From: Candidatus Micrarchaeota archaeon | GTDB taxonomy: Archaea > Micrarchaeota > Micrarchaeia > Anstonellales > Bilamarchaeaceae | Assembly: GCA_964552755.1 (NCBI GenBank) | Contig: CAZKHX010000002.1 | Coordinates: 4,775 to 68,774, forward strand | Length of the DNA stretch: 64,000 bases | Direction: 5' to 3' | The notes under the pieces: generated by a model | Seen by the model: the letters and a program-made list of their open reading frames with translations, nothing else | What the model was told of the DNA's origin: nothing | Database searches by the model: none | Position numbers and translations under genes: made by a program | Shown here: in pieces, positions 11,017 to 64,000 of the stretch | Position numbering within the stretch: the first letter of the stretch is position 1 | How the letters are laid out: each line of letters begins with the position of its first letter

Positions 11017-11050
11017 ACTACCCCTCACAACCTTACTTCATGCAGAACAA

Positions 11051-13660: not shown

Positions 13661-13670
13661 GTTAACCGCC

Positions 13671-17865
<4,195 letters not shown>

Positions 17866-47383: not shown

Positions 47384-48397
47384 TCATGCCGCAGCAGCCA
47401 TTGCGCCCCTTATGCTCTCCTGCGAGCCGAGCATCTCCTGCAGCTTCGGATTCTTCTTCCCCGCTTCCTTCTCAAGCGCGGCAGTGAGCTTCTCCAGCGT
47501 CCTGAGCCGCCATTCCCTCGGAACGGAAGAAAGGTATTCTCCTATTTCCCCCAGACTGCAGGTGATGATGCAGCAGTGCTCTCCCGCCTTGGAGGCGCAC
47601 CCGGCAAGCGTTTCGAGCGCGGGAAGGCGGTCCTCCTCCCTCATGCGCTCAAGCACCATGGGCAGGCCCTTCCCAAGCCCGTTGAGCACGAAATCAATGA
47701 GGTATTCCTTGCGGCCCTTCAGGCCCCTGAGCATCTCCTCCACCTGCTTCCCGCCATAGTAATATGTGTTAATCATGTACGGGTCGTAGAAGATTGAGCG
47801 GTCGCGCGCAGCGCTTACGTAAAGCACGTCCATGCCCTGCCCGAGCTCCTTCTCGGTTACCTTGTTCACCACTTCCATGAACATGCCGGCCTTCAGCTCC
47901 ATGTGCTCCTTGTCCAGCACGAGCTCCTTCAGCAGGCGGGAAAACGAGTATTCGCCCTTCTGGCGCATCTTTTCCCATACGCGGCCCGCATCCTTTTTCG
48001 CATAGGGCGGCAGGGCCTTCATGAATGACTTCACCTTCGGCTCTTCCCTCTTTATTATGTCAATCGGGCCCTCGCTCTGCGCCGCACCCATTGCGCGCAC
48101 CGGCCGCCTCCTCTGCGGTGGAAGCTTCGCATGCCTCACGTCCCTGGCCTCTGTGTGCTCTGCGGCCGCTGAAACAACAAGGGAGTCAATCTTCTCCTTG
48201 AGCTCGCGCTCCCCTTTCCTGCGGGCGTTCAGCTTTTCAGACGCGTCAGCCAGCGTGAGCAGCGTTGCGGTGCGCGAAAAGGAGAAATCATGCACGTGCA
48301 CGAGCTCCGCGAGTATCTCGTCCACTTCTGCCGCGTGCTCTGCCTCAAGCGCGCTCAGCTTCACCCTCTTCAGGTCCGCGGCCGGGATTCCCTTCAT
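47384..48397 (-). CDS. Hypothetical protein (337 aa), no recognisable family
   Basis: ORF-track entry. Leaderless ATG 27.5 nt from a TATA box. Coding-like composition. No motifs recognised. Confidence 0.55.
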   Translation of the reverse strand: MKGIPAADLKRVKLSALEAEHAAEVDEILAELVHVHDFSFSRTATLLTLADASEKLNARRKGERELKEKIDSLVVSAAAEHTEARDVRHAKLPPQRRRPVRAMGAAQSEGPIDIIKREEPKVKSFMKALPPYAKKDAGRVWEKMRQKGEYSFSRLLKELVLDKEHMELKAGMFMEVVNKVTEKELGQGMDVLYVSAARDRSIFYDPYMINTYYYGGKQVEEMLRGLKGRKEYLIDFVLNGLGKGLPMVLERMREEDRLPALETLAGCASKAGEHCCIITCSLGEIGEYLSSVPREWRLRTLEKLTAALEKEAGKKNPKLQEMLGSQESIRGAMAAAA

Positions 48398-48420
48398 GGT
48401 TAAACAGGTGTTGCATCCGT

Positions 48421-48428
48421 TTTATAAA
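48421..48428 (-). promoter_or_regulatory. TATA-like box (tttataaa) for the 47384-48397 gene
   Basis: Box centre 27.5 nt from ATG 48397. A second box aataaata at 48448-48455 faces the plus-strand gene. Confidence 0.4.
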
Positions 48429-48485
48429 AACGCTGTCCGCCGGAAACAATAAATATCATCTAGGCGCCATTCTATTGGTGCATCC

Positions 48486-49490
48486 ATGGTAGGTCCGGTA
48501 ACGAAAGCAAAGCCAACGTCCGCAACCATTGCAAAGGAAGCCGCGGGGATAGCCGCGAAGCTCAACATAGTGAATGGGGAGGTGAAGAATGCGGGCGCAG
48601 TCGGAGAGGAGGCATTCAAGTTCCTGCAGAAATACCCGAAGAACGCAAAGGAAGCTTCGGACACGCTCGCAAAGGAGCTCATCAAGGGGATGCAGGAAGG
48701 CGGCGTGAAATCCATAAGCGGTGCCATGCAGTCGCTCATGGCCACACCTGTCTTCAAGAACCTGAACCTAATGCGCGAGGCGGTGCTGGCGCAGCTGCTG
48801 GATGATTTCAAGGACATAGAGGGGAAATGGAAAGAGGGCAAATACGGAGTATTCCCGAATTCCATGAGCAAGTCCGAAATACAGAATGAGGCAAAGAAGT
48901 TTGCCAAGGACGTCGAGCTGCTGAGCGAAGCCGAAAAGAAGGCATACACAAACAGGGTGAATGGGGTTTTTGTGGAGGCAGGGGAGCTCCTGAAGCAGGG
49001 GAAGACCATGCCGGATGTGCTCAAGTACATAAGCGTGAAAATCGCAGAGATACGCAGTGAGATGAAGGGCCTCCTGCTGGAAAGGACGCTCAAAACCCTG
49101 GAGGGGTTCGCAAAAAAGAGCAAACTGCTGGAAACGGCCTTCAAGGCATCGCTGGAAGGTGTTGGCGCCCATAAGCTCCCAGAGCCCTCATTCGGAGAAC
49201 TTCCAAAGTTCGTGGAAGAGCTTTCAAAATACAAGGTGCCCAAAAAGGCCGCCCCCCCGGTTATGCCCACCGCACTTGCAACGAAGGAAGCAATGTCCTA
49301 TTCGCCCAAGCACTGGGGCGAACAGCGGGTGATTATCAAGGGGACGGAGGCCAAGGCGCTCCAAGCGCAAGTGGCAGAGGCCAAGAACCTTAAGGAACTC
49401 GAAAAGTTGGGGAAGGCCGGGCTGCTGGTGGCAGGGATGCTGGCACTCGCCGCGCTTGGCTACATCGCATACGAAGCCACCAAAGAATAG
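48486..49490 (+). CDS. Hypothetical alpha-helical, tail-anchored membrane protein (334 aa)
   Basis: K/E/A-rich helical sequence with a single C-terminal TM AGLLVAGMLALAALGYIAY followed by EATKE*. Confidence 0.55.
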   Translation: MVGPVTKAKPTSATIAKEAAGIAAKLNIVNGEVKNAGAVGEEAFKFLQKYPKNAKEASDTLAKELIKGMQEGGVKSISGAMQSLMATPVFKNLNLMREAVLAQLLDDFKDIEGKWKEGKYGVFPNSMSKSEIQNEAKKFAKDVELLSEAEKKAYTNRVNGVFVEAGELLKQGKTMPDVLKYISVKIAEIRSEMKGLLLERTLKTLEGFAKKSKLLETAFKASLEGVGAHKLPEPSFGELPKFVEELSKYKVPKKAAPPVMPTALATKEAMSYSPKHWGEQRVIIKGTEAKALQAQVAEAKNLKELEKLGKAGLLVAGMLALAALGYIAYEATKE

Positions 49491-49535: not shown

Positions 49536-51095
49536 GTGGGCAATGTGCGCTCTATGGTATTGCTATTGTTATTGGGAAGCATCGCGTTCTCCACGACCTA
49601 CATAGATACGTGCGGGCATGTGCTGGACGAAGCGGGGAAATACGTAATTGACGACGACCTGAACATGTACACTTCTGAAAGCAAGTGCATCCGGGTGAGC
49701 GCCAACAACGTGGAAATAGATTGCGGCGGCCATTCTTTCCAGGGCGGCTCTAAGGGCACCGGCATATATGTGGAGCCCGGGATGCGCAACACGGTGATAA
49801 GCAACTGCGATTTCGGCTACCTGCAGTACGGCATCCAGACCGGCGGCACGGACGGGGAGATATCCAGCTGCAATTTCGACGCGAACCAGGTGGGCGTTTA
49901 TGCGATGGAAGCGGCCCGCCTCACAGTCACGGACTGCGGGTTCACCAACAACCGCGTGGGCGTGAGCATAGCCGATTCCTATGCAGTGGACGTGCACGAC
50001 TCCAGCTTTTCCCTCAACAAGGACTATGGGGTGGAGTCGAAAAGCTCTTCGGAATCCGTGATTTCGCACAATTCCTTTGACAAGAGCGCAACCGCAATCT
50101 ACCTTGACGGGCTTTCGCAGGACAGCACGGTCACCTACAATACAGTGGCCAATTCCGCGGACGGCATTTCAATAAGGGGCGGCGGCTCCACATTTGCCGG
50201 AAATACCTTCAGCGGGAACAGCGGCTATGCATTCCTGGTCGCAAGGGGCATGAACACCTTCACCGGCAATATGATATACGGGCAGCCCAACTACATAAGC
50301 ATACAGAGCGTGCCGGTCACTTTCGTGAACCTCTCAATCGGCGAGCCGGGCAAGGCGGGCTCGGTAAGGTTCGATTCCTTCAAGTTCACCAAGCCCACCA
50401 CCTCCGCGGCGTGGTACAATTTCAATTCCGAGAACATGCTCTTCTTCCCGGAGTTCGTCGCATTCAACGCGGTGGGCACCCCGAATGCGGAAACCGGGCC
50501 GGCAACCTTCTGGCTCAGCACCACCGCATGCGATGGCATTTCCGTTTACACGAAGGCAGGGTTCCCGCGCTCTTCCGGCGAAATCGTTTCCACCGGCCAC
50601 GCGGACTCTGATGCGGAAATATCCTCCTGCGGGGACGGGGTTGCGGAGATAGCCGTGAACTATTTCTCTGCGTATGCGCTCGGCGCATCCCCGGAAGCCG
50701 AGCCGGAGCCTGAGCCCGAGCCGGAAGAAAGCACAGTTACCTCAATCAGCATAAGCGCTCCCTCCACCGTCTACACGGACGAGGTGCCCATACTCGAGGT
50801 AATTGACCAGGGCGGCAGCCCGGTGAAGGATGCCTCTATATACTATTATACGGACCCCTCCGATGTCATCTCCCTTGGCGAGACCAGCTCGCAGGGCCGC
50901 CTGCCCTTCAACATAAAGGAGGAGGGCTCCTACGTGCTGAGGGCGGAATACGAAGGCCTCACCACCGACCGCGCAATCAGCGTGCAGGAGAGGCCTCCGG
51001 CGGAGGAGCCGGAACCCGGGGAGCCCCAGCCCATCTGCCCGGCAGCTTTCGCATTTGCGCTCCTTGCCTTTGCGGGGCTCGCCCTCAGGCGCTAG
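49536..51095 (+). CDS. Secreted right-handed parallel beta-helix (PbH1/NosD-like) protein with C-terminal sorting-signal-like tail
   Basis: Signal-like MGNVRSMVLLLLLGSIAFS. Cap motif CIRVSANNVEIDCGGHSFQG, then repeats of the type ISNCDF.../ISSCNF.../VTDCGF... C-terminal PPAEEPEPGEPQP + ICPAAFAFALLAFAGLAL + RR. Confidence 0.7.
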   Translation: MGNVRSMVLLLLLGSIAFSTTYIDTCGHVLDEAGKYVIDDDLNMYTSESKCIRVSANNVEIDCGGHSFQGGSKGTGIYVEPGMRNTVISNCDFGYLQYGIQTGGTDGEISSCNFDANQVGVYAMEAARLTVTDCGFTNNRVGVSIADSYAVDVHDSSFSLNKDYGVESKSSSESVISHNSFDKSATAIYLDGLSQDSTVTYNTVANSADGISIRGGGSTFAGNTFSGNSGYAFLVARGMNTFTGNMIYGQPNYISIQSVPVTFVNLSIGEPGKAGSVRFDSFKFTKPTTSAAWYNFNSENMLFFPEFVAFNAVGTPNAETGPATFWLSTTACDGISVYTKAGFPRSSGEIVSTGHADSDAEISSCGDGVAEIAVNYFSAYALGASPEAEPEPEPEPEESTVTSISISAPSTVYTDEVPILEVIDQGGSPVKDASIYYYTDPSDVISLGETSSQGRLPFNIKEEGSYVLRAEYEGLTTDRAISVQERPPAEEPEPGEPQPICPAAFAFALLAFAGLALRR

Positions 51096-52388: not shown

Positions 52389-55300
52389 CTAATCCAATTC
52401 CACCCAGAACTCCACCACTCCGCTCACGCCTTTGTAGGTGCTCAGGTTCGCGGGCACCCTTATCTCGTAATCATAGGGTGCACTAGTGTTCACCGCGGTA
52501 ATGAAGGCAACGTCCTGGTTTGCAGTTGTATTGAACTGCGGCCAGCCCTGCGAGGCGTCCCATGTTATGCCGGTGTCGAAGGTGCTGTTCTGCGTCGTGG
52601 AATTCGCCTCGGGAACCCACGGGACGAAGTGCCTGAACAGGGTCATGTTTTCCGTGCGCTTCGGCGTGCTTCCATCGGTAGAGTAGGTAATGTTTATGTT
52701 GTCCGGCTCCGCGCTGTAGCCCAGCAAAGTATCAAGCTCAACAAAGTCATTGTTCGAAGGAGCCCCTGCATCGGTGCGGCCCAGCGCGGTGAGGTTTATC
52801 CACTGCACGTTCGCGTCGCCGTTTATCACGTACACGTTGCCTTCATTGCCGTTCCACAGCCATGAATAAAAGATGTCCACGCTATTGGGCGCAAGGAGCA
52901 GCGAGCCGTTTACGTCCCCGTAGAAGTAATGCCATATCTCGGTGCAGCGATAGGTGCACCCCCCGTGGCCGCTTTCGCTCCAGGAGCTCCAGGAGTCGCA
53001 GGAGTCCTGCGCGCCCGCGTTGGAGGGCCCGAGGTTGTCCACGTCGAAGCCGTTGAAGCACACCTGGTTGGAATACAGGCCTGCCCCGCCGCTGTCCGCG
53101 CTGAACCGGATTCCGCCGATTGTATTGTTGGTGATGTTGGAGAACACAAAGATGCTGTCGTCCGAATCCGAAAGGTAGAGGCCATGGTCGCTGTTGCCGG
53201 ACACCCTTGAGAGATTGAGCGTGGTGTTTTGCGCGTCGTCAAACTGCACGCCGTGGCCGTCGTTTCCGCACATGTCCGAATCGTTTATGTAGATGTATTC
53301 CGTGTGGTGCAGCCGTATCCCGTACTGGTGGTTGTAGCAGAACGTGGAGCCGGTTATGTTGACCCTGTCGGAATTCACGATGTGCAGGCCGTGGCCATTG
53401 TTGCCGCTTGCATTGATATTCTCGAACACTGCATCATGGCAGTTGTTCAGGTTGACGCCGTTCCCGTTGTTGTTCTTGAAATTGGAGGGGTCTATGAACA
53501 GATTTGAAGAGTAATCTCCCGTAAATCCGTCCACGGAGTTGTTATATGCACTCACGTTGATGAAATCGTTGTCCGGAGAATTATCTATGTAGAAACCCGA
53601 CTGGCTGTTGTTATGCGAGAAGCTGTCCATTATGGTATTGTTGTAGGAATTCGAAAGGTAAACTCCCGAATCGGAATTGTTGTATGCGAGCAATCCGGAT
53701 ATGTTGTTGTAATCCGAATTATCCAGGTGCAGGCCGTCTATGGAATTGTTGTGGGCCAGGTCGCCCCCCATCGAATTATTGTCTGAATAAATGAGGTATA
53801 TCCCGAAATAGGAGTTGTTGTATGCGCTGTTGTTCCCCAGCGCATTCCCAGAGCTCGTGTTTATGAAGAAGCCGGGCGCGGGGTTGTCCCGGGCGGAGTT
53901 GCCCCAGAGGATGTTGTAGTCGCTCAGCACCAATACGAATCCGGGCGAGGCCGGGCTGCCGTATTCCGTGTTGGCCGTGAGATTGTTGAAATCGCTGGCT
54001 GCGAGCGTGAACCCTGGCGAGCTGGTGTTGTGCGCAGTGTTGAGGGCGAGGGTGTTGTTGTGGCTCGAGTCCACGTAGAACCCGTTTTGCACGTTGTATG
54101 CGCTGTTGTTCGTAAGGTTGTTCCAGTTCGATTTCGAGAACAGGGCGAAGCCGTCCTGGGAGCAGTTGAATGCGATATTGTTGGCAAGCGCGTTGTGCGT
54201 CGCATTCGCGCCGAGCCGGAATCCATAGTTGTTGCGGTATGCCGTGTTGTCCTCCAGCACGTTGCCGTGCGAGTCCTGCAGTAAGAAGCCGTTCAGCGAA
54301 TTGTTGTATGCCTGGTTCCCTGTGAAGCGGTTGCCGCTTGCGTTGGCCTGCAGGAAGAAGCCGAAGAGGGAATTGTTGTAGGCCCCATTCCCGGTGAAGT
54401 TGTTGAGCGCGCAATCCTCGCCTATCTGGAGGCCCGCCGCCCCGTTGCCGTGCAAGCTGTTGTTGGTGAGGGAATTGCCGCTGGAGCGGTTGAACAGGTA
54501 GATGCCGCTGCCCGTGTTCCCGGATACGGAATTGTTTGTGATCATGTTGCCCGAGCTCAGCTCGAAATAGCAGCCGAAGTAGCTGCCGGAAATACTGTTG
54601 TTCCTGAGCGTAGTGCCGTTGCTCGAGCTGGAGTAGAAGCCCACGGTCGGATTGCCGTACGCAACGTTGTCGGCGAAAGTGTTGCTGGCGCTTCCCTCGG
54701 TTACGGCGAAGCCGAACTGGTTTCCGGACACCCTATTGCCGCCCAAGTAGTTGCCGCTGCTGCCCTGCACTACGATGAAGCCGAACTGGGCATTGCCGCT
54801 GGCGGTGTTATTGGTGAAGTTGTTGCCGTGGCCCTGCGCGATGCCGAAGCCCATGGAGTTATTCCTGGCAGTATTGTTGTAGAGCATGCTTCCGTTGCTG
54901 GCGAACACTCCGATGCCGAGGGTGTAGTTGGAAATGCCCGGGCAGTTCCTCACCGTCACGTTCGTGAGCGAGCCATTGAGCAGGACGCCCGCCGAGCCAA
55001 CGCTTGCGGTTCCGTTATCGGTTATGTTGTATCCGTTGCAGTCGAAAACAACGTTTGATACAGTGATTTTCACGCACGTGTAGTTCACCGGGTCCGGCGA
55101 GAGGGGCGCCGCGTCATTGGGCGCGCCCACGTAATTCTGCGGCTGCAGGTATGTGCCGGGCGAGGATATCACCGGGCAGTTGTCCAATCCGCCCTGCAGT
55201 ATCCCGTAATCGGACGCAGGATTCATATTCGTAAGGGACAATTCATTTGCGGCTATGTTCGGAGTGCTGTTCAGCATCGCCCAGCTTCCATTCCATCTCC

Positions 55301-58300
55301 AAAGCTCGAATTCCGTTTCATCATATCCCGGCAGTTCTGAGTCCAGCCAGTGCCATGTTATGGAATCGATGCTTACCGCCCCCGACCGGTTAGTTATATT
55401 CACCCATTTTTCCCTGAATGATATGCGGCCCGTTGGAAGTCCTGAAGAATTGGCCGTCCAGTTGATTGAATATGCGGTGTTTGCTTCTATGCTATCCTCA
55501 ATTGAAAGAGAGGTGTAGTTCTGGAAACCGCCCAATGGGTTGTCTATTGTCATATTGTAGAGATAAACGGGTCTGGCTGCTGCGTCGGTGGCAACATAGA
55601 AATCGCCCAGGTTATTGCCATAGAAATGCATATTTGTAACATTCGTCCTGTTTGCCCGGTCGATGTACAGGCCATACTGGATATTGTTGTATGCGGTGTT
55701 GTCGGTAAGGTTGTTGTAATCAGAGCTGGCAATTATGTTAAAACCATGCTGGAGGTTATCGCGGGCCGTGTTGTCGATAAAATTATTGTCGGAGCTTCCG
55801 GACAGATAGAATCCGTAAAGGTTTGCGTATCCTGTGTTATTGGTAAGATTATTGTTGTTGCTGTATTGCAGGAAGAACCCGTCCCCATTGCCGTATGCGA
55901 TATTATCCGCCAGAGTGCTCCTGTTGCTTGAACTCAGGTAAAAGCCGTTTTGTATATTGCCATATACGGTATTATTCACAAAAGCATTGAAATTGGCGGA
56001 AATAACCGCGAATCCGTGCTGGGAATTGTTCGAAACATTGTTGTAGGAAAAATTGTTCGCAGGGCCGCTTAGGTGAATGCCCGTATTCGTATTGTTGTAA
56101 ACGCTATTGTTTTCGAAGATGCTGTCCGAAACCGGATTGAGATACAATCCATATGTATTGTTGTAAACGGTATTGTTCACGAGGCGCAGGTTTTTGGAGG
56201 AGCCTATCAGGTAGAATCCGTAAGTCATATTGTAAATCCTGTTGTTGCTCATGTTGCTGTAGGCGATGTCCGCGCTTCCCACGCCCAGTATCGCGTCGTC
56301 CATTATGTTGTCTTCGATAGTCACGTTCCTGCAGTAGTCGCACCGCACCCCCAAGTCCACCATACTTATGTTGTTTCCTATCACCCTCGCCATGGTATTG
56401 TTGGGCATGTCTATGCCGTCGTTTGCAAATGCGTCCAGCATTCCGGTAGTTACGCCCTCCCCTATGTTGTTGTATGCGATATAGCTCCCGAAAGAAACGT
56501 AGTTGAATATCGCGTCATCATCACCGTTCAGCAGCGAATTATATGATATGTTCACATAATCCGAATCCCTTCCGGTTATGGTGTCCCCCATGTTCCAGTC
56601 CATGGTGTTGTTGTATATCGTAGTGTAGTCGCTGTCATAATGCGCTATTCCGTATCCCGTGTTGTTGGAAATATTGTTGCTTGAAATGAAGCTGTCCGAG
56701 GATTCGTTTACGAAGAACCCGTTTGTATTCCCGCATACCGTGTTTCCCGTGAAATTGTTTCTGCTTGCATTTACATGGAGGTAGAATCCGTAACCGCCCG
56801 CTCCCATGAACTCGGTTATGTTGCAGGCATTGTTATTGATGAACGAGTTGTGCATCGATTGGTTGTAAATCCTGAACCCGTAGTTCGTGCTGTTCGTAAC
56901 GCTGTTGTTCCTGTATATGTTGTAAGAGCTGTTGTGGAAAAGCTGGTATCCCGGGAAGCATGATGCGGCCATGTTGTCGCTGACATTGTTGTAGGAACTG
57001 CCCCATATCCTCAGCCCCCGCGCAGTGTTGTCGTGCATGTAATTCCCGGTTATGGTGCTGAAATGGCTTGAGAGCAGCATGATGGCGTCAAAAGTTATGT
57101 TCGTAAGGGTGTTGTTGGCTATGTTCGTGTAATTCGATTCATAGACATATACTCCGAATACGTAATCCGCTATCCTACCGCAGTTTTTCACCGTAACGTT
57201 GGTAAGGGAGCCGTTGAGCAGCACCCCGTAAGTCATCCCTGCGGTCCCGTTGTCCGTTATGTTGTAGCCGCCGCAGTCCAATACGACGTCCGATGCGGCT
57301 ATCTTGATGCATGCCGAATCGGCAAGCGGGGATGCATTTATCGGCGCCCCTTCCAGGTCCGCATTGAGGGAATAGCTTCCTGATGAATTTATTATGCCGC
57401 ATACCGATGTTTCATTCCCGAGTATCGTATAATCGCTTGCAGGGTTCATGTTTCTCAGGCCTAATGTATTTGCTGCTATGTCCGGAGTGCTGTTCAGCAC
57501 CGTCCAACCGCTTGCATTATGCTTCCACAATGACAGCCGGCTTTCGTCATGCCCCGCAACCTCAGAATCCAGCCAGTGCCAGGTTATGGCATCTACTGCT
57601 ACCAGCCCGCTCAGGTTTGCTATCTCTACGAATTTCTGGTTGAATGAGGAATGGAGCGGAGGCAGGGCGCTTGAGTTTGAGGTCCAGTTTATGAAATACG
57701 ACGAAGGCGAAACAGCATCGTAAATGTCCAGAACGGTATAATTCTCCAGGGTTCCGGACGGATTGGCGAATGTCATGTTTGTCGCATTGCAGACAATGTT
57801 CCCTGCAAGAAGGTTGCTTACGTGGAAGTCGTATCCATTGTTGTAAAGCATGATGTTCTCATAGTTAGTGTTGTTGGTATCGGACAATCTTATGCCGTAT
57901 GCATTGCCGTATGAACTGCTGTTGGCTATATTCACACCATCCGAACTTTCCAGGATGTAGAAGCCCGCAACATCATTATCATAGGTGGTTACGTTCGCTA
58001 CGTTGGTAAATGTGCTCCCGCTGTCGATTCTTATTCCGGAATCGCTGTTGTTGTAGGTAACCATGCTCCTTATCGTGGTACTGCCGGAATCCTGCACTCT
58101 CACTCCGCGCAGGTTGTCATGGCTGAGCGCATCGATTATGCTGTTGTTGCCGGACAGCCTTATCCTGAACCCTGCAACACTGGAGCCCGCTGAATACGCG
58201 CTGCAGCTTATCATCCTGTTGTTGTCCGAGCCGGAATTCATATAGAATCCCTGGCTGTTCATGTATGCGGTGTTATTGTAGAATAAGTTGCCCGAGCTGC

Positions 58301-61300
58301 CTGCAGAATAGAATCCCTGTGCAGCATTGTCGTATGCAAAATTTTGGGTGAAATTGTTGTTGTCCGAGCCCGCCAGGATTTCAAAGCCCCTTGCACTGCT
58401 GTCATGCACGCTGTTATTGTAGAAAGTGCTGTTGTCCACGTTGTTAAGGCCTACCGCATCCGTGAAATTGGATATGTTGCAGTGCTTAAGCGTAATGTTG
58501 TTTGCGCCGTAGGTATAAACTCCGAATCCGGTGGCATTTCCCATTATCCTGTACCCGCCGCAGTCCAGCACCAGGTTGTCAACACCCATCTGGAAGCAGG
58601 TTCCATTCGAATAAACGTCGTTAACCAGCGTTGCATTCTTTATGAGGTTTCCGCAGGTGTATGGGACGGTGTAATCGACAGTGCTGGTATTGGAGCCGTT
58701 TGCGTTTTCAACATAGCAGGTTATGCTCACGATTCCGAAATCGTAATCCATGTCCGCAGTTACGTTTTCAACGTTCGTTTCATAATCCACGTACCTGTAT
58801 CCGTCCGAATGCGTTATGTTGAGGTATTTGCTTAACGGCGCCTCGCCGCTGCTGTAGCTCCAGTTCACCCACTGCGTATCCCCGAAATTAACCGGGTCGA
58901 GATAATCGTCAATGCTGCACGAAGGGGCCTCAACGTAAATCTCCCATTCCGATTCGTTTATCGTGTTGTTTGCATATCCTGGCTTGGAACAGCTGTAGTT
59001 CATGTAATACGTCCCGCTCCTGAACCCGTATGCAATCGGCCTTCCCGAGCTGTAAAGCCCGGTTGTTGAATTGTAGCTCATGTTTACCGGATAGCCCTTT
59101 GCCTCGAGCCTTACGAGGTCCTGCCCTTCCGTGGTAACCGCGCTCCAGTTTCTCTTGCCTGCAGAAGAATTCAGTGAAACATAATTGGCAGTATAATCCG
59201 CATCAATGTCCTTCGCTATCTTCCAGACGTCCTGGTTGACGTTTTCCACGATTTCTTCTCCGGTAAGCGCCCTGTCAAGTATCCTTACTTCATCTACTGA
59301 ACCGTCGAAAAGGTTTCCTATCCCCGCGTCGTTCGCACCTATGACAAGCGGGGCAGTGCCGTTGTAAATCGTAGAGCCGTTCATCCCGGTCCCCGATGCC
59401 TGGAGGTCCCCGTCCATGTAAAGCTTCATGTATTCCCCGTCGAAAGTTCCCGCGACGTGCACCCATTCCCCTACGGGAACGCTGTCAAGCGATACTATGG
59501 TATATCCCCCTCCGGCGGTTCCGTCGTTGTTCAGGTAGAATGCAAGCTGGTTGCCGGCGGTTATCGCCATTGCCCAGCTCCTCTGGTTCGTGCATGTGCC
59601 TGAAAAAGCAGGCCCGCAGTTCGCTCCGGTTGCCCCGAATTTGCTTATGAAAACCCTCAGCGTTCCCGTATCCGCGGGCTGGTAGACAAGCGCCTCCACC
59701 GTAAGGTTGTCAGGGGTGTCCAAAACGCCGGAGCCGTCATCCGCAGCCCTGAGGCTCGCATTGGTCCCCGTGAAATTCATCGAGTTGTTTATCCAGCCCG
59801 GTGAAACGGTTACGTTCCTCGTTGAATTGACATCATCCACGAATTCGCTCATGTTCAGGCCGTTTGCCGATTCGTCAATGGTGTAATTCGTTCCCCATAT
59901 GTCCGTGAAGTTGTCGAGATGATACAATGCAACGAGATTGGCAGAATACTGGCCGGGGCCGTAGGGTGTTTTCCTTATCGTGAAATTGCAGTCCGGGCAG
60001 CTGTAAGCGAACTGCATATTGACTATGAACGGATTTCCCAGGGAAGCGAGAAGGTTGTTGTATGCAGTTATGTTCACGTCCATGCGCATCCATTCGAAAT
60101 CGTCCTGCACCCCGAAATAGGCATCCGCATCAGAACAGCTGGTCTGGCCCAGGAAAATGCAGTAGGTGCTCTCATTGGTAAGGTTCAGGTTGCTGTTGTC
60201 CGCGCCCGCACTGGTGTTCAGGTAGTTAAGGCAGAAATCAACCGTTATGTTATTGCTCGTTCCCGGATAGCATTTCATTTTGCCGTAGCCCTTTATGGTC
60301 TGCATTCCCGAGTATACGTTGTCAAACGAGTAAAGGTGCTGCCTCGGCCCCGCTATCGTGACATCGGTATCCACAGCATCGTTTCCGTAATAGTAAACCG
60401 GAATGGGGATGCTGTCGGCATATGTGCACGTCCCGTCGGAATTTATCGGGCTCCCCGTTGAATTGGTGTAATTGCAGAAATACATCTGGTAGTCCCCGAC
60501 CTTCACCCTGTTCGGCATCTCCCAGCATGTAAGGTTGGTGGTGCTGTTGGAGTTTCCGAATATTCCGTAGTCGGATGCAGGGTTGAGATTGCTGAGCCCG
60601 AGGGTATGCAATGAAGTGTCCGGAGAATCGTTCATCAAAGCCCAGGATGAATTGTATCTCCATAGTTCAAGCTCGGACTCTATATAGCCCTCGAGTTCCG
60701 GAACGGTCCAGTGCCAGTTTATGCGGTCTATGCTCACCGTTCCGCCCAAAGCAGTTATGTTGATATTCTTGCCCCTGAAGGAAATCTTTCCCGGAGGAAC
60801 GCCCAAGGAGGGGGTCCAGTTTATTGAATATGCGCTTGAAGCGGAAACGTAATCTGATATGGAAAGATTTGTGTAGTATGAGCGGTCCCCTTCCGGCCTG
60901 TCGAATATAAGCGAATCCATGTCGAGAAGGGCGGGCATCCCAAGCGTGTTGTTCACAGCGAAATCGATTGAATTGCTGTGCGTGCTCGAATTCGTTATCA
61001 GCGTATTGTTTGAATTATAAATGTAAATTCCGTAAAGCGAATTATTGCAGGCCACCGAATCGTTTATCACCGTTCCGTTGGAGCCGGAGACGTTTATCCC
61101 GATTGTGTTGCCGCAGAAATAGGACGGGTCTATGTCCGCATCATCCGAATCTAGGACGATTATCCCGCTCCCGGTGTTTGAATTGGAAGCGGCATTTGTT
61201 ATTTTCACGGAGCTTGACCCGTTTATGAATATTCCCGAGTAATTGGCACCGGTAATTGCATCCGAATCGGAGAGGTGGCTTCCCCCTCCGGAGATTTCAA

Positions 61301-64000
61301 TTCCGTAGCCGCATCCGCTTATTGTGTTGCGGCCGGTTTTCACTCCGTAGGCATTTTCCAGCATTATGCCGCTTCCGGACAGGCGTATGCTATTGTTTGA
61401 GATATTCGTCCCGTATGCGCCTTTGGCAGTGTATACTCCCGAAGTGTATATCCCGGATATGCTGATGTTCTCTATCGTATTGTTGTAGATTGACGCGGTG
61501 GAATTGCCCGCCCCGTAAATCCCGTAGCTGTAATTGTAAATCCCGCAGTTCCTTATCTCCGCCGATTTTATTCCGCCGAGGAGAAGGCCGTAAGTGCTGT
61601 CCGAGCCGTTTCCGGTTATGCTGTGCCCGTTGCAGTCTATCACGACGTTCATCGCATCAACGGTTATGCACGCCTTGTCGCCCTTGTTCCCTGCCAAATC
61701 GGAACCGAGCGCATACACGGTATCCTCCGAACTGGCGTAGAAGCATTCCGTGGGCGGAGTGATGTTGAACTGCCTTGTCTGCGAATATGACGAATTCTCA
61801 TTTTCAATATAGCACGTTATGTTTCCAATCCCCGTTGCGTGGTTTATGAATGCGCTCGCGTTTTCGGTATGGATTATGTAATCGCTGTAAACGGCGCCGT
61901 CTTCATGGGTCATGTTCAGGTAGAGCCTGACCGGAGGCACGTTTGAATTGTATGACCAGTTGACGTACTGGTAACCCCCGAGTTCCACGCTTGCAAGGAA
62001 ATCATCTACACTGCAGTTCGGGGCGCCCGCTTCCACGGTCCATGGGGATGAATAATCCTGGCTTTCAGCGCCGCTTCCTGAGCAGGTATAGTTTATTCCG
62101 TAAGTTCCGGTTTCGAACCCGTATCTTATCCCCCTCCTGCTGTTGTAGGTATCGGTCGTTGAATTGAACGGCATGGAAGTGGCATTCCCGAGAATCTCAA
62201 GCCTTACGAAATCCTCTCCAAGCTCGGGGGATATGACGGTGAAATTCCTTTTCCCGCCTGATATTTCATCGGATACGTACCCGTTTCCCGAGCCAGGCCT
62301 TGCCTGCGCATTTATCAGCCAGAAATCAGCATTCATGTGGCTTACTACCTCGGGGTCGGTCAGGCTCTTGTTGAGGACCCTGGCTTCATCCACAAGCACG
62401 TATTCGCCGAACAGGTTTCCTTCTTCAGAGCCGATGACGAAAGGGGCATTGCTGTTGAATATCTTTCTTCCTGAAAAGCCATCGCTCTTGGAAACCACCA
62501 CCCCGTTCCTGTATAACTTGATTATGTTCCCGTCATAGAAAAACGCCACATGGACCCATTCTCCCTCCGGGAACGGCATGTCGTCCCTCACTTCAAATTC
62601 GCTCGATTTCGTTCCATGGCTTGAAAGGGCAACTGTAAGCCGGTTCTCCTTGTCAAGATAAATCCTGTACCCTCTCTGGTTTATGCAGGGCTCGTCCATG
62701 CCCGGGCCGCAGAAATCCACCGATTCGTAGCCGTATTTCGAGATAATCGCTCTTTCCCTGGGCACGTGCTGGTCCACCTTAATATATGCCTCGATGAATA
62801 TGTCCGTCTGTATGTCAAATTCGTCATTGTCCGCTATCGCCAGATATCCGTGGTCGTTTGAGAAATTGGTGCAGTTGTCTACCTGCCCAGGGGATATGCC
62901 TACCGTCCCGTATCTGGTAAGATTGTTCCTTCCCGTAGCATCGGCCGCAAGGTAATCGCTTCCGTTGTACGTATAATTGTCAAGATGGTAAAGCGCAATA
63001 AGGTTGGCCGAATACTGGCTTTCATTGTACGGGGTTGTGAAAAGGCTGAAGTTGCAGTCCGGGCACCAGTAGGTGAACTGCATGTCAATTATAAAAGGAT
63101 ACCCGATTGCAGCGCGCGTCTGCGCATATTGGCTCATGTTCACATCCATGTAAACCCATGAGAACTGCCCTTCGGTATTTCCGGGCATTCCGGCAAACTG
63201 GCCGCAGCTCATCTGCCCCAGGAAAAAGCAGTTCTGGCTTTCGTTGCTCTGATTGACGTTGCTGTTGTCCGCGCCCGCACTGGTGTTCATGTAGTTAAGG
63301 CAGAAATCAACGCTCATGTTCCCCTGCGTCTCATTGTAGCAGGTTACTTTTCCCCATCCCCGTATGCTCTGCAGGTCGTACCATATTCCTCCGAAGCTGT
63401 ATGCCCTCTGGATTTCGTTGTGGAACGCATGCTCCCTAAGGTTGAAATCCTCGCTTCCGTAGAAATAATACGAAACGGTGTTGTTGTCCGTCCAGTTGCA
63501 CGCCGCGCCTTCGACAGCGCTCCCGTTTGAGGCATAGCTGTAATTGCAGTAGAGATACGACCTGCTCCAGGTATTGGGGTAAGGGGCGGAAATCGGGTCA
63601 GGAATCTCCCAGCAGGTGAGGTTTGTCAGCTCGTCCGCGGTTATTACGTACCTGTCCGAGTCCTGCACCGGTATGAAGCTGCCGTCCTTTGCGCACGTGA
63701 CGAAAAACGTTGAATCGACCGCGGCCGGGAATGCCTGGGCATGAACGTAAAGCCCGAGCGTGCTGTTGTAATCCATGCTGTATGTCTCATTGGTGGTGAT
63801 GTTGCACACGCCCGCGCCGTTCGTAATCGGGGTTCCGTTCAGGTACGTGTAATTCGCATAAAAATAGTTTGTTTCGCCTACTTCAACTGTTTTCGCATCG
63901 GAATCGTCCCATGCCGTTACTCTGTAGCTTACGTTCGGGTCGCCTGTTATTTTTACGTCGTCAACGAACCATCCGCGGTCGTTCACCGAATTGTCCGCGG
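52389..64000 (-). CDS. Giant modular surface protein (>3865 aa; N-terminus outside the window): Cys-rich + LamG-like + Ig-like + four parallel beta-helix blocks
   Basis: The frame stays open to the window edge (codons above the ORF-track GTG 63986 read ...ADNSV with no stop). LamG-like regions at about 62995-62345 and 59950-59245. Beta-helix blocks at about 61675-60945, 58610-57790, 57315-55590 and 55085-53040. Very dense N-x-S/T sequons. No C-terminal TM. Confidence 0.85.
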   Translation of the reverse strand, partial: ADNSVNDRGWFVDDVKITGDPNVSYRVTAWDDSDAKTVEVGETNYFYANYTYLNGTPITNGAGVCNITTNETYSMDYNSTLGLYVHAQAFPAAVDSTFFVTCAKDGSFIPVQDSDRYVITADELTNLTCWEIPDPISAPYPNTWSRSYLYCNYSYASNGSAVEGAACNWTDNNTVSYYFYGSEDFNLREHAFHNEIQRAYSFGGIWYDLQSIRGWGKVTCYNETQGNMSVDFCLNYMNTSAGADNSNVNQSNESQNCFFLGQMSCGQFAGMPGNTEGQFSWVYMDVNMSQYAQTRAAIGYPFIIDMQFTYWCPDCNFSLFTTPYNESQYSANLIALYHLDNYTYNGSDYLAADATGRNNLTRYGTVGISPGQVDNCTNFSNDHGYLAIADNDEFDIQTDIFIEAYIKVDQHVPRERAIISKYGYESVDFCGPGMDEPCINQRGYRIYLDKENRLTVALSSHGTKSSEFEVRDDMPFPEGEWVHVAFFYDGNIIKLYRNGVVVSKSDGFSGRKIFNSNAPFVIGSEEGNLFGEYVLVDEARVLNKSLTDPEVVSHMNADFWLINAQARPGSGNGYVSDEISGGKRNFTVISPELGEDFVRLEILGNATSMPFNSTTDTYNSRRGIRYGFETGTYGINYTCSGSGAESQDYSSPWTVEAGAPNCSVDDFLASVELGGYQYVNWSYNSNVPPVRLYLNMTHEDGAVYSDYIIHTENASAFINHATGIGNITCYIENENSSYSQTRQFNITPPTECFYASSEDTVYALGSDLAGNKGDKACITVDAMNVVIDCNGHSITGNGSDSTYGLLLGGIKSAEIRNCGIYNYSYGIYGAGNSTASIYNNTIENISISGIYTSGVYTAKGAYGTNISNNSIRLSGSGIMLENAYGVKTGRNTISGCGYGIEISGGGSHLSDSDAITGANYSGIFINGSSSVKITNAASNSNTGSGIIVLDSDDADIDPSYFCGNTIGINVSGSNGTVINDSVACNNSLYGIYIYNSNNTLITNSSTHSNSIDFAVNNTLGMPALLDMDSLIFDRPEGDRSYYTNLSISDYVSASSAYSINWTPSLGVPPGKISFRGKNINITALGGTVSIDRINWHWTVPELEGYIESELELWRYNSSWALMNDSPDTSLHTLGLSNLNPASDYGIFGNSNSTTNLTCWEMPNRVKVGDYQMYFCNYTNSTGSPINSDGTCTYADSIPIPVYYYGNDAVDTDVTIAGPRQHLYSFDNVYSGMQTIKGYGKMKCYPGTSNNITVDFCLNYLNTSAGADNSNLNLTNESTYCIFLGQTSCSDADAYFGVQDDFEWMRMDVNITAYNNLLASLGNPFIVNMQFAYSCPDCNFTIRKTPYGPGQYSANLVALYHLDNFTDIWGTNYTIDESANGLNMSEFVDDVNSTRNVTVSPGWINNSMNFTGTNASLRAADDGSGVLDTPDNLTVEALVYQPADTGTLRVFISKFGATGANCGPAFSGTCTNQRSWAMAITAGNQLAFYLNNDGTAGGGYTIVSLDSVPVGEWVHVAGTFDGEYMKLYMDGDLQASGTGMNGSTIYNGTAPLVIGANDAGIGNLFDGSVDEVRILDRALTGEEIVENVNQDVWKIAKDIDADYTANYVSLNSSAGKRNWSAVTTEGQDLVRLEAKGYPVNMSYNSTTGLYSSGRPIAYGFRSGTYYMNYSCSKPGYANNTINESEWEIYVEAPSCSIDDYLDPVNFGDTQWVNWSYSSGEAPLSKYLNITHSDGYRYVDYETNVENVTADMDYDFGIVSITCYVENANGSNTSTVDYTVPYTCGNLIKNATLVNDVYSNGTCFQMGVDNLVLDCGGYRIMGNATGFGVYTYGANNITLKHCNISNFTDAVGLNNVDNSTFYNNSVHDSSARGFEILAGSDNNNFTQNFAYDNAAQGFYSAGSSGNLFYNNTAYMNSQGFYMNSGSDNNRMISCSAYSAGSSVAGFRIRLSGNNSIIDALSHDNLRGVRVQDSGSTTIRSMVTYNNSDSGIRIDSGSTFTNVANVTTYDNDVAGFYILESSDGVNIANSSSYGNAYGIRLSDTNNTNYENIMLYNNGYDFHVSNLLAGNIVCNATNMTFANPSGTLENYTVLDIYDAVSPSSYFINWTSNSSALPPLHSSFNQKFVEIANLSGLVAVDAITWHWLDSEVAGHDESRLSLWKHNASGWTVLNSTPDIAANTLGLRNMNPASDYTILGNETSVCGIINSSGSYSLNADLEGAPINASPLADSACIKIAASDVVLDCGGYNITDNGTAGMTYGVLLNGSLTNVTVKNCGRIADYVFGVYVYESNYTNIANNTLTNITFDAIMLLSSHFSTITGNYMHDNTARGLRIWGSSYNNVSDNMAASCFPGYQLFHNSSYNIYRNNSVTNSTNYGFRIYNQSMHNSFINNNACNITEFMGAGGYGFYLHVNASRNNFTGNTVCGNTNGFFVNESSDSFISSNNISNNTGYGIAHYDSDYTTIYNNTMDWNMGDTITGRDSDYVNISYNSLLNGDDDAIFNYVSFGSYIAYNNIGEGVTTGMLDAFANDGIDMPNNTMARVIGNNISMVDLGVRCDYCRNVTIEDNIMDDAILGVGSADIAYSNMSNNRIYNMTYGFYLIGSSKNLRLVNNTVYNNTYGLYLNPVSDSIFENNSVYNNTNTGIHLSGPANNFSYNNVSNNSQHGFAVISANFNAFVNNTVYGNIQNGFYLSSSNRSTLADNIAYGNGDGFFLQYSNNNNLTNNTGYANLYGFYLSGSSDNNFIDNTARDNLQHGFNIIASSDYNNLTDNTAYNNIQYGLYIDRANRTNVTNMHFYGNNLGDFYVATDAAARPVYLYNMTIDNPLGGFQNYTSLSIEDSIEANTAYSINWTANSSGLPTGRISFREKWVNITNRSGAVSIDSITWHWLDSELPGYDETEFELWRWNGSWAMLNSTPNIAANELSLTNMNPASDYGILQGGLDNCPVISSPGTYLQPQNYVGAPNDAAPLSPDPVNYTCVKITVSNVVFDCNGYNITDNGTASVGSAGVLLNGSLTNVTVRNCPGISNYTLGIGVFASNGSMLYNNTARNNSMGFGIAQGHGNNFTNNTASGNAQFGFIVVQGSSGNYLGGNRVSGNQFGFAVTEGSASNTFADNVAYGNPTVGFYSSSSNGTTLRNNSISGSYFGCYFELSSGNMITNNSVSGNTGSGIYLFNRSSGNSLTNNSLHGNGAAGLQIGEDCALNNFTGNGAYNNSLFGFFLQANASGNRFTGNQAYNNSLNGFLLQDSHGNVLEDNTAYRNNYGFRLGANATHNALANNIAFNCSQDGFALFSKSNWNNLTNNSAYNVQNGFYVDSSHNNTLALNTAHNTSSPGFTLAASDFNNLTANTEYGSPASPGFVLVLSDYNILWGNSARDNPAPGFFINTSSGNALGNNSAYNNSYFGIYLIYSDNNSMGGDLAHNNSIDGLHLDNSDYNNISGLLAYNNSDSGVYLSNSYNNTIMDSFSHNNSQSGFYIDNSPDNDFINVSAYNNSVDGFTGDYSSNLFIDPSNFKNNNGNGVNLNNCHDAVFENINASGNNGHGLHIVNSDRVNITGSTFCYNHQYGIRLHHTEYIYINDSDMCGNDGHGVQFDDAQNTTLNLSRVSGNSDHGLYLSDSDDSIFVFSNITNNTIGGIRFSADSGGAGLYSNQVCFNGFDVDNLGPSNAGAQDSCDSWSSWSESGHGGCTYRCTEIWHYFYGDVNGSLLLAPNSVDIFYSWLWNGNEGNVYVINGDANVQWINLTALGRTDAGAPSNNDFVELDTLLGYSAEPDNINITYSTDGSTPKRTENMTLFRHFVPWVPEANSTTQNSTFDTGITWDASQGWPQFNTTANQDVAFITAVNTSAPYDYEIRVPANLSTYKGVSGVVEFWVELD
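52392..55187 (-). repeat. Giant-gene module 4 (beta-helix 4 + unique C-terminal domain of about 215 aa)
   Basis: Begins LDNCPVISSPGTY...TCVKITVSNVVFDCNGYNITDNG. The C-terminal domain at 52392-53040 is Trp/Cys-rich and ends EFWVELD*. Confidence 0.65.
55188..57404 (-). repeat. Giant-gene module 3 (beta-helix 3 + post-helix domain)
   Basis: Begins VCGIINSSGSY...ACIKIAASDVVLDCGGYNITDNG and ends NPASDYGILQGG. Confidence 0.65.
57405..60535 (-). repeat. Giant-gene module 2 (same architecture as module 1)
   Basis: Begins NLTCWEMP and ends NPASDYTILGNETS. Shares blocks such as DFCLNY-NTSAGADNSN, CPDCNF, QYSANL-ALYHLDN, GEWVHVA. Confidence 0.7.
60536..63625 (-). repeat. Giant-gene module 1 (Cys-rich LTCWE domain, LamG-like, Ig-like, beta-helix 1, post-helix domain)
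   Basis: Begins NLTCWEIP and ends NPASDYGIFGNSNSTT. Collinear with module 2 over about 1030 aa. Confidence 0.7.

Follow-up and report, generated by a model that had tools for sequence, protein, structure and literature searches.

The question raised by this locus is how a very large extracellular protein that lacks a membrane anchor of its own might be held on the surface of a small-genome archaeon. The 64,000-nt stretch of DNA analysed here (contig CAZKHX010000002.1 of Candidatus Micrarchaeota archaeon assembly GCA_964552755.1, positions 4,775 to 68,774; hereafter the window) contains at its right end most of a gene encoding a modular protein of 4680 residues, the giant. This protein ends in a domain of about 200 residues, CT, which is also found as a small stand-alone secreted protein and at the N-terminus of a membrane protein, both encoded by neighbouring genes in an arrangement conserved across six independent genomes. 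We propose, with a probability of roughly 55%, that the giant forms a secreted, adhesin-like fibre bearing N-glycans, which a conserved apparatus retains on the cell through CT.

A gene for a protein of 4680 residues

The giant gene had been read from the DNA alone (the original prediction) as a single open reading frame (ORF) that occupies the last 11.6 kb of the window, starts ADNSVNDRGWFVDDVKITG and is still open at the window edge, and translation bears this out: the minus-strand ORF runs over 52389..63998, with 3869 codons within the window, and fills 52389-64000. The N-terminus and the signal peptide expected there lie beyond the edge and were recovered through other assemblies, which supply the absent 811 residues. 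A protein search identified the full-length product, P0001, which is 4680 aa long (about 506 kDa, pI 4.2) and 100% identical across the window part. Its 90% cluster contains five 4680-aa variants and one 4690-aa call (P0258) that uses an upstream ATG, the members being drawn from JGI, ENA, NCBI, and GEM, where their contigs measure 34-220 kb. Intact orthologues of 4378 aa (82% identity) and 3818 aa (roughly 55% identity) are also present.

The GC content is 0.48-0.55 over the giant gene (0.51 overall) compared with about 0.58 elsewhere. The dip sits at codon position 1 (0.436 versus about 0.58), and GC3 is 0.68 versus about 0.75. Horizontal transfer was considered as its source and ruled out on this codon position 1 drop, GC3 being only slightly lower; the low GC is attributed instead to the Asn/Ser/Thr/Tyr-rich composition of the protein.

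The CT domain defines a family of small, membrane-bound, and giant proteins

The C-terminal domain of the giant had been described as Trp/Cys-rich and unique. It is indeed rich in Trp (10 residues) but has just three Cys, and it is not unique: at least 1640 clusters belong to the family that it defines. On the extended contig (L001, in which the window edge is position 12432) a neighbouring gene encodes a 225-aa protein whose residues from 60 to the last align with the last 190 residues of the giant (BLASTP versus P0138, E=4e-10), and both proteins end FW[LV]ELD followed by the stop codon. The N-terminal domain of a second neighbour, F700, is likewise related to the 225-aa protein (E=4e-5). 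The window CT was the first sequence of the CT profile, and the BLASTP match to P0138 is independent of that profile.

A profile search yielded 150 clusters, nearly all of them ~220-aa proteins annotated as 'hypothetical protein', from Micrarchaeota metagenome-assembled genomes (MAGs) and with no Pfam domain. An exhaustive search over 1.84 billion representatives then brought in 1640 clusters at a threshold of E≤1e-3 (250 of them at E≤1e-30), almost all labelled Micrarchaeota, the taxonomy labels being the depositors' own. The CT hidden Markov model (HMM) covers the whole length of every small protein, aligns with each F700 at its N-terminus (E 1e-15 to 5e-26), and matches the L001 and L005 giants at their C-termini; in the window giant, profile positions 25-221 correspond to residues 4469-4680, including the aromatic-x-E/N-L end motif. 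The small protein has in addition a conserved N-terminal segment, IQPAExW..GKY, which is absent from F700 and the giant.

The CT sequences retrieved comprise 205 small proteins and 56 long ones (400-5626 aa, median 1138). In all 56 long proteins CT lies within 5 aa of the C-terminus, and none of the 56 has a C-terminal transmembrane (TM) segment. A hydrophobic N-terminus is present in 37 of 47 large members of the family, most members having classical, cleavable-looking signal peptides. Small CT proteins also occur on short contigs of MAGs labelled Methanosarcinales or Woesearchaeota (L033, L034, L035), with an F550-like gene as well in L033; these may reflect mis-binning, or the family may truly extend beyond Micrarchaeota.

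An AlphaFold2 (AF2) model of CT built from a 118-sequence alignment is all-beta, with a predicted local distance difference test score (pLDDT) of 84.6 and a predicted TM-score (pTM) of 0.80. Foldseek comparison of this model gave a best E of 0.23 and TM-scores of at most 0.22 against PDB, and a best E of 0.04 and TM-scores of at most 0.26 against BFVD, so that this confident model has no structural match in either database, nothing falling below E=0.02. There was no CT match in Pfam or NCBIfam, and 66 small CT proteins compared with Pfam returned noise alone. No prior description of the CT family or of the gene cluster was found in the searchable literature, Pfam, NCBIfam, PDB, or BFVD.

A four-gene cluster conserved in Micrarchaeota

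Three genes without a Pfam family adjoin the giant gene at L001 5325-9790, just past the right edge of the window, and encode the small CT protein, F550, and F700 (Table 1). The order of the cluster is small (~220 aa), ~550 aa, ~700 aa, then a large NosD/beta-helix protein, and this arrangement is syntenic in L001, L003 (GCA_043812915.1), L005 (GCA_038886115.1), L006 (JGI 3300018080), L036 (the P0002 genome), and most of 29 loci obtained by scanning GTDB representative genomes. Those 29 loci comprise 26 labelled Micrarchaeota, Anstonellales, Bilamarchaeaceae, or Micrarchaeales, two labelled 'Methanosarcinales' (co-assembly MAGs), and one labelled Woesearchaeota. In L036 the cluster has the same order and orientation as that next to the window, whereas the flanking genes differ. 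By HMM annotation, about 20 distinct loci have F550 adjacent to the small gene, usually followed by F700, and large ORFs with a CT end adjoin in 13 loci. These large ORFs contain 4.0-7.0 N-x-S/T sequons per 100 aa versus 0-0.9 in F550. F550 and F700, at 39-58% identity between genomes, show stronger conservation than the giants do. In one MAG the core cluster sits on one scaffold and a second scaffold bears two more CT-terminated giants (L009, L030), and the combination of one core cluster with extra giants elsewhere fits a single apparatus serving several cargoes.

F700 consists of a signal peptide, CT, an Ig domain resembling CARDB/NPCBM_assoc, four Cys-rich repeats resembling Dickkopf/DUF7107, CarboxypepD_reg-like domains, and two to three TM helices, all of the Pfam scores being sub-threshold. 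The TM region includes a strongly conserved ICFMSN segment. From this layout F700 would be a membrane-rooted stalk with CT at its outer end. F550 has three tandem ~90-aa repeats, CARDB-like domains, and a C-terminal TM segment. We tentatively describe the repeats as CWB2-like: 4 of 16 members match PF04122 (best E=3.1e-4), and repeats 1 and 2 are related to one another by hhalign (83.5% probability, E=8e-6), repeat 3 having been recognized by eye alone. The F550 profile has no match among PDB sequences, and comparison of the three partner proteins with NCBIfam gave nothing except a sub-threshold match to ArlF (E=0.004).

The giant and F700 genes diverge from a shared 210-bp intergenic region, in which a TATATAAAGG motif lies ~40-50 nt upstream of both candidate start codons. 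An in-frame ATG 10 codons upstream in the giant gene (L001 9968-10000) adds MGKPSASGGL and gives the signal peptide a charged n-region.

Variable cargo proteins end in the same domain

Long CT proteins differ greatly in their passenger regions, the parts N-terminal to CT. Among 33 long CT-terminated proteins surveyed with Pfam, Beta_helix is present in 22, NosD in 20, Laminin_G_3 in nine, and F5/8 type C in two, while FG-GAP, FBA, Pentaxin, and the Sialidase N-terminal lectin domain are each found in one. Per 100 aa of passenger sequence the median count is 4.4 sequons, about 1.9-fold what shuffling predicts, and the window giant is among the largest and most sequon-dense members. The family is a broad one of secreted and probably glycosylated proteins, either carbohydrate-binding or of beta-helix type, with a single C-terminal module in common. 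The syntenic giant at L005 10717-18783, in a Bilamarchaeaceae MAG, combines Peptidase_S8 with beta-helix repeats and a CT domain, indicating that passenger domains can be catalytic. The original prediction had put the giant forward as a candidate for host or substrate attachment in a small-genome archaeon; the Micrarchaeota host and the lectin-like passengers, which predominate across the family, agree with this, and adhesion would be the corresponding function.

Modular organization of the giant

A module map of the giant was derived by masked sliding-window self-comparison, a plain BLAST self-comparison having given just the trivial match; residue numbers refer to the full-length 4680-aa protein and window coordinates are collected in Table 1. 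Two modules of ~1030-1045 aa followed by two longer helices had been foreseen, and we find modules A (residues 932-1960, 1029 aa) and B (1050 aa), which are 36-42% identical along their whole length, and helices of 605 and 715 aa in modules C and D. The five parts of modules A and B are reproduced as previously described, with Pfam recognizing the LamG and helix parts, although the label 'Ig-like' for the beta-rich domain could not be verified. All three of the Pfam families that had been anticipated are matched: Beta_helix (PF13229) with 443 bits (cut-off 25.9) over 14 stretches, NosD (PF05048) with 393 bits over 14 stretches, and Laminin_G_3 (PF13385) with 155 bits (gathering threshold 27.6) in two copies. 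The para_beta_helix model TIGR03804 matches 16 stretches (215 bits versus a cut-off of 19.45). The helices total 1885 residues, corresponding to about 84 rungs and about 40 nm, to which about 13 globular domains are added.

Outside the helices, family assignments are few. The N-terminal region is 61-89% conserved in P0002 and P0003, and its residues 1-811, beyond the window, contain the signal peptide, five acidic EFVDVDEYLNxT repeats, and two orthologue-conserved regions; it has no significant Pfam match, the best being CBM_3 (E=0.006). Seven excised non-helix segments compared with Pfam at E up to 1 gave no significant match, and the Cys-rich and 'Ig-like' beta-rich domains have none. The Cys-rich domain has nine Cys that are invariant over five module copies of three proteins. 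The post-helix domain occurs in three copies in the giant (48-57% identity) and in four in P0004, and is all-beta in an AF2 model with pLDDT of about 60-78. For module A as a whole, AF2 with a 5-sequence alignment gave a mean pLDDT of 44.9, below 50 over the beta-rich domain, and this model is too poor to define the fold of the Cys-rich and 'Ig-like' domains.

Sequon density and export

The sole hydrophobic segment of the giant is at its N-terminus and is signal-peptide-like; none was found past residue 20, including at the C-terminus. The earlier statement that there is no TM anchor is therefore right as to the C-terminus, but misses a likely anchoring route through the CT domain on a neighbouring membrane protein. 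SecY is encoded within the window.

Sequon saturation, claimed at the outset, is borne out by the counts. There are 257 sequons in the 4680 residues (5.5 per 100 aa), 2.7-fold more than the 94.6±8.3 in shuffled sequences, and 20 other proteins encoded in the window have 0-0.8 per 100 aa. The non-helix domains show the stronger enrichment, 3.5-fold (139 versus 40.2), and the helices 1.7- to 2.3-fold; the Cys-rich domain of module A, for example, has 13 sequons (3.4 expected) and the module C helix has 41 (17.9 expected). In a 59%-identical orthologue 75% of the sequons are retained, and 80% of sequon Asn residues are conserved versus 48% of other Asn. The enrichment outside helices, the conservation of the sites, and the depletion of sequons in the neighbouring 519-aa beta-helix protein argue together for selection on the sites themselves. 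Heavy N-glycosylation, as originally suggested, is favoured by such dense and positionally conserved sequons, many of which would be occupied. According to published work, Micrarchaeota express genes for N-glycosylation and their S-layer protein is glycosylated (bioRxiv 10.1101/2021.04.28.441871).

A second beta-helix surface protein, of 519 aa, is encoded 1.3 kb from the giant gene and has one sequon (4.7 expected), which suggests that glycosylation affects the two beta-helix surface proteins of this genome differently. This neighbour had been called a smaller anchored paralog; it is indeed nearby and TM-anchored, but its similarity to the giant is confined to the helix cap and rungs (23-36% identity). 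It is not a CT-family member, and a Cys precedes its TM segment (PICPAAFAF...LRR).

A model for surface display and its alternatives

We envisage that the giant is directed by its N-terminal signal peptide to Sec export, with the peptide probably cleaved, and is N-glycosylated at many of its 257 sequons. It would form an elongated fibre in which four beta-helix shafts alternate with lectin-like LamG, Cys-rich, and beta-sandwich domains. Having no membrane anchor of its own, it would be retained at the surface via CT, which may dock or co-assemble with the CT of F700, that of the secreted ~220-aa protein, or both, F550 presumably being the fourth member of the same apparatus. The N-terminal and lectin-like parts would then face away from the cell and bind the glycans of a host or a substrate. 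Taken together, a cleaved N-terminus, the lack of a TM segment, the invariant C-terminal position of CT, and the presence of this domain on a membrane protein single out CT as the obvious candidate for the anchor.

Several observations weigh against this proposal. Should the N-terminal segment be an anchor that is not cleaved off, the fibre could run the other way, with CT at its far end. The CT monomer is modelled as a complete fold in which nothing demands a partner. The NN[ST] consensus of beta-helix repeats, rather than selection for glycosylation, may explain some of the surplus of sequons in the helices, and AglB was not found among the ORFs scanned in the 64-kb window.

A pilus-like version of the same proposal, in which the small CT protein is the shaft, F700 the membrane anchor, and the giant a tip adhesin, is one that we consider unlikely. 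One domain is common to the three proteins, and the positions of the passenger N-terminal to CT in the giant and of the membrane part C-terminal to it in F700 fit a polar stack; the additional IQPAExW..GKY segment of the small protein would be in keeping with a shaft subunit, and the Tafi and AbpX loci similarly encode a pilin, a tip protein, and an anchor (PMC12337348; bioRxiv 10.64898/2026.01.04.697558). AbpX is also the best match of the CT profile among PDB sequences, though this is non-significant (E=0.16 over 86 positions), and the LamG region weakly matches the NCBIfam model of the TafC tip (E=2e-7), though with 30.5 bits against a cut-off of 410. However, none of TasA, AbpA, thread, Tafi, or AbpX is among the 50 best PDB Foldseek matches of the CT model, and the CT monomer is predicted to fold completely without a donated strand. 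The clusters inspected (L001, L003, L005, L006, and L036) also contain no gene for a dedicated signal peptidase (SipW/TafD) with a DUF5305 partner.

It is less probable still that the giant is mainly an enzyme, such as a tailspike-like polysaccharide depolymerase, a lyase, or an epimerase acting on host or biofilm glycans, with binding as a secondary role. Pectate lyases, tailspike depolymerases, and AlgG are usually built on a parallel beta-helix, and the only sequence match of the giant to a solved structure is between module D and the beta-helix of the AlgG mannuronan C5-epimerase (E=8e-6), but this match covers about 150 aa of repeat rungs. The Peptidase_S8 domain in a syntenic relative, and giant genes of predatory bacteria that have been linked to cell-wall degradation (bioRxiv 10.1101/2023.11.21.568195), would also fit a catalytic role. 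In the window giant, by contrast, the generic Beta_helix, NosD, and para_beta_helix repeat models alone match, with no glycoside hydrolase, pectate lyase, or other catalytic family in Pfam or NCBIfam, and four helices interleaved with lectin-like domains resemble a stalk more than an active site.

That the giant is a building block of an S-layer or sheath covering the whole cell is highly improbable. It is acidic, sequon-laden, and secreted like S-layer glycoproteins, and some archaeal surface-layer proteins have beta-helix domains, according to work cited in PMC5498576. The S-layer protein of Micrarchaeota, however, is different, being about 100 kDa, containing a PF05123 domain, and being the most abundant protein in culture (bioRxiv 10.1101/2021.04.28.441871), and the giant matches neither PF05123 S_layer_N in Pfam nor TIGR01564/01567 in NCBIfam. 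The passengers moreover vary widely between related genomes (400 to 5626 aa, with different domains), unlike a lattice protein.

Finally, an assembly artefact or pseudogene can be dismissed for practical purposes: long genes with internal repeats are prone to mis-assembly and all of the assemblies are apparently short-read, but in at least four contigs (34-220 kb), which differ in sample and assembler, the length and frame of the gene agree, comparison of the window with two other assemblies shows 4 and 5 substitutions in 11,612 nt and zero indels, the internal repeats are only 28-57% identical at the protein level, and the 82%-identical, 4378-aa orthologue is likewise intact. The collapse or expansion, frameshifts, and pseudogene decay that the original prediction had warned of were not found in any of these comparisons. 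Modules A and B, at only ~40% identity, are too divergent for assembly collapse or expansion, and we read the modules as old duplications, not collapsed repeats. Judged by this agreement among assemblies and orthologues, the giant gene is real and intact and encodes one modular extracellular protein.

Host and genomic neighbourhood

The neighbours of the giant gene include purP and the archaeal ribosomal operon L3-L4-L23-L2-S19-L22-S3-L29, and the giant gene of L005 also abuts the L3 operon. Ribosomal protein L3 is 61-65% identical to those of named Candidatus Micrarchaeota, Micrarchaeia, Bilamarchaeaceae, and Anstonellaceae, with a closest non-self match of 73%, and by this measure the host is a DPANN archaeon of the phylum Micrarchaeota.

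The interval that separates the L3 operon from the surface genes (47384-49490) contains two ORFs without a family. One encodes a 334-aa Lys/Glu/Ala-rich protein with a single C-terminal TM segment (308-331) that looks tail-anchored, and the other a 337-aa soluble protein; an overlapping antisense ORF (48422-49270), Ser-rich and of low complexity, is probably spurious. Further to the left, on the minus strand, are two adjacent genes (11051-15557) which, from the reading of their N-termini, look like those for DNA gyrase subunits A and B. Directly downstream of the gyrB-like gene, at 15562-17865 (minus strand), is a 767-aa protein that belongs to no Pfam or NCBIfam family; its N-terminus is lipobox-like (LLMFGC), and several TM segments form a central block at ~350-490. 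The minus-strand gene at 9775-11028 encodes a 417-aa secreted protein with weak Big_1 and macroglobulin MG4 matches, a further candidate surface protein with a normal sequon density (0.7 per 100 aa). In the genome of the 82%-identical orthologue, the RtcB RNA ligase gene (L036 26111-28918) is split by an intein (Pfam Intein_splicing).

Table 1. Features of the giant gene, its partner genes, and the neighbouring beta-helix gene. Coordinates are those of the window unless a contig is named.
Feature	Location	Strand	Extent	Remarks and basis
Beta-helix protein	49536..51095	+	519 aa	Signal peptide, PE-rich (PEPEPEPEPE) linker, C-terminal TM anchor 498-518; Pfam Beta_helix, NosD
Stop codon of giant gene	52389..52391	-		ORF translation
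CT domain	52392..53036	-	Residues 4466-4680	Ends ...EFWVELD, then stop; profile match
Module D	53037..55181	-	715 aa	Beta-helix without post-helix domain
Module C	55182..57401	-		Beta-helix and post-helix domain
Module C, post-helix domain	55182-55586	-	135 aa
Module C, beta-helix	55587-57401	-	605 aa
Module B	57402..60551	-	Residues 1961-3010, 1050 aa	Same five parts as module A
Module B, post-helix domain	57402-57791	-
Module B, beta-helix	57792-58661	-
Module B, beta-rich domain	58662-59141	-
Module B, LamG domain	59142-59906	-		Best Laminin_G_3 stretch in module B
Module B, Cys-rich domain	59907-60551	-
Module A, post-helix beta-sandwich	60552..60926	-	Residues 1836-1960	SINWT...INWHW...NPASDYGI
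Module A, right-handed parallel beta-helix	60927..61751	-	Residues 1561-1835	Pfam Beta_helix, NosD
Module A, beta-rich domain	61752..62246	-	Residues 1396-1560	Conserved between modules and orthologues
Module A, LamG/concanavalin-A-like domain	62247..62981	-	Residues 1151-1395	Pfam Laminin_G_3
Module A, Cys-rich domain	62982..63638	-	Residues 932-1150	LTCWE...CPDCNF
End of N-terminal region	63639..64000	-	Residues 812-931, 120 aa	Translation; full-length P0001
Small CT protein	L001		225 aa	Secreted
F550	L001		549 aa	Signal peptide, C-terminal TM
F700	L001		679 aa	Signal peptide, 26 Cys, 2-3 C-terminal TM helices

Implications

Micrarchaeota and other DPANN archaea rely on physical contact with a host, and the locus described here supplies candidates for the little-known molecules that make this contact, in the form of a conserved three-gene core, a ~200-aa domain without a known relative, and hundreds of variable, sequon-rich cargoes that end in it. 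If CT is an anchoring or assembly module, it would provide a sequence tag with which the surface 'adhesome' of any Micrarchaeota genome could be listed, as well as a handle for pull-downs and for the assignment of densities in cryo-ET, and it may represent a new protein fold. The giant also illustrates that generic 'NosD' matches in DPANN genomes need not mean nitrogen metabolism.

Comparison with known systems

Large strain-specific surface proteins, including expanded LamG-like proteins with a proposed role in host contact, have been described in the Micrarchaeon Mia14 (Golyshina et al. 2017, PMC5498576). Mia14 belongs to the same phylum, and its large secreted LamG-like jelly-roll/adhesion proteins, like the giant, occupy an appreciable part of a very small genome. 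PKD, beta-propeller, and CARDB domains are reported for the Mia14 proteins, however, and that paper reports no shared C-terminal domain, small/F550/F700 cluster, or sequon saturation.

Giant 'SPEARE' surface proteins are reportedly present in Nanohaloarchaeota (Hamm et al. 2019, PNAS). Like the giant, these are multi-thousand-residue secreted DPANN proteins thought to serve in host attachment, and the L005 relative of the giant resembles them further in joining a serine protease (Peptidase_S8) to beta-helix repeats. SPEARE proteins combine serine protease, restriction-endonuclease, and adhesion domains and are from a different phylum, whereas P0001 has no protease or nuclease family and is defined by CT and its partner genes. 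Giant proteins have also been noted in nanohaloarchaea in a separate study (PMC10266531).

The giant has the parallel beta-helix repeat of NosD (PF05048) in common with the protein involved in N2O reductase maturation. A NosD function was rejected: the score is 106 bits versus the 300-bit cut-off of TIGR04247, no nos gene is nearby, and the protein has 4680 residues versus about 400. 'nosD' has been counted in 11 DPANN genomes as an accessory denitrification marker (PMC7906910), and such counts may be inflated by giant surface proteins.

Phage tailspikes and bacterial fibrillar adhesins (PMC9210967) similarly have a long beta-helix stalk, carbohydrate-binding modules, and fast modular turnover at the distal end. 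The giant differs from them in that no trimerisation or virion-attachment domain was recognised, the gene lies beside a ribosomal operon, and the N-glycosylation sites are far denser. Neither a C-terminal hydrophobic helix nor an NCBIfam CTERM match of the archaeosortase/PGF-CTERM kind was found in the giant.

Archaeal strand-donation filaments of the TasA superfamily (Tafi TafA/E-TafC-TafF, AbpA, AbpX, and the Sulfolobus threads) resemble the cluster in comprising a ~200-aa secreted beta-sandwich subunit, a tip, and a membrane anchor, and their subunits are glycosylated and Sec-exported. CT has no significant sequence or fold similarity to them, however, and the 'tip' here would be 10- to 20-fold larger.

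Bacteria have C-terminal sorting and anchoring domains such as the C-terminal domain (CTD) of the type IX secretion system (T9SS) and the SLH and CWB2 modules. CT is like these in that one terminal module is present on many unrelated large secreted proteins and is accompanied by dedicated partner genes, F550 itself being weakly CWB2-like. It differs in its size of about 200 aa, which is about twice that of the T9SS CTD, in being abundant also as a stand-alone protein and present on a membrane protein, and in having no sequence or fold match to them; the host, moreover, is an archaeon with an S-layer and without an outer membrane or wall polymer.

A broader proposal is that CT, the small protein, F550, and F700 form an undescribed, Micrarchaeota-specific appendage or cargo-anchoring system, built on a fold without a detectable relative and displaying interchangeable glycan-coated lectin/beta-helix fibres for host capture, and thus an independently evolved counterpart of the tip-shaft-anchor organization of pili or of CTD sorting systems. 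We hold this as a tentative possibility on which the odds are somewhat unfavourable. The giant itself is a known sort of protein, since large LamG/adhesion surface proteins are known in Micrarchaeota and giants in other DPANN archaea. New, so far as Pfam, NCBIfam, PDB, BFVD, and the searchable literature show, are the CT family, its distribution among stand-alone proteins, membrane stalks, and cargoes, and the small/F550/F700 core, and it is there, rather than in the size of the giant, that the novelty of the locus lies.

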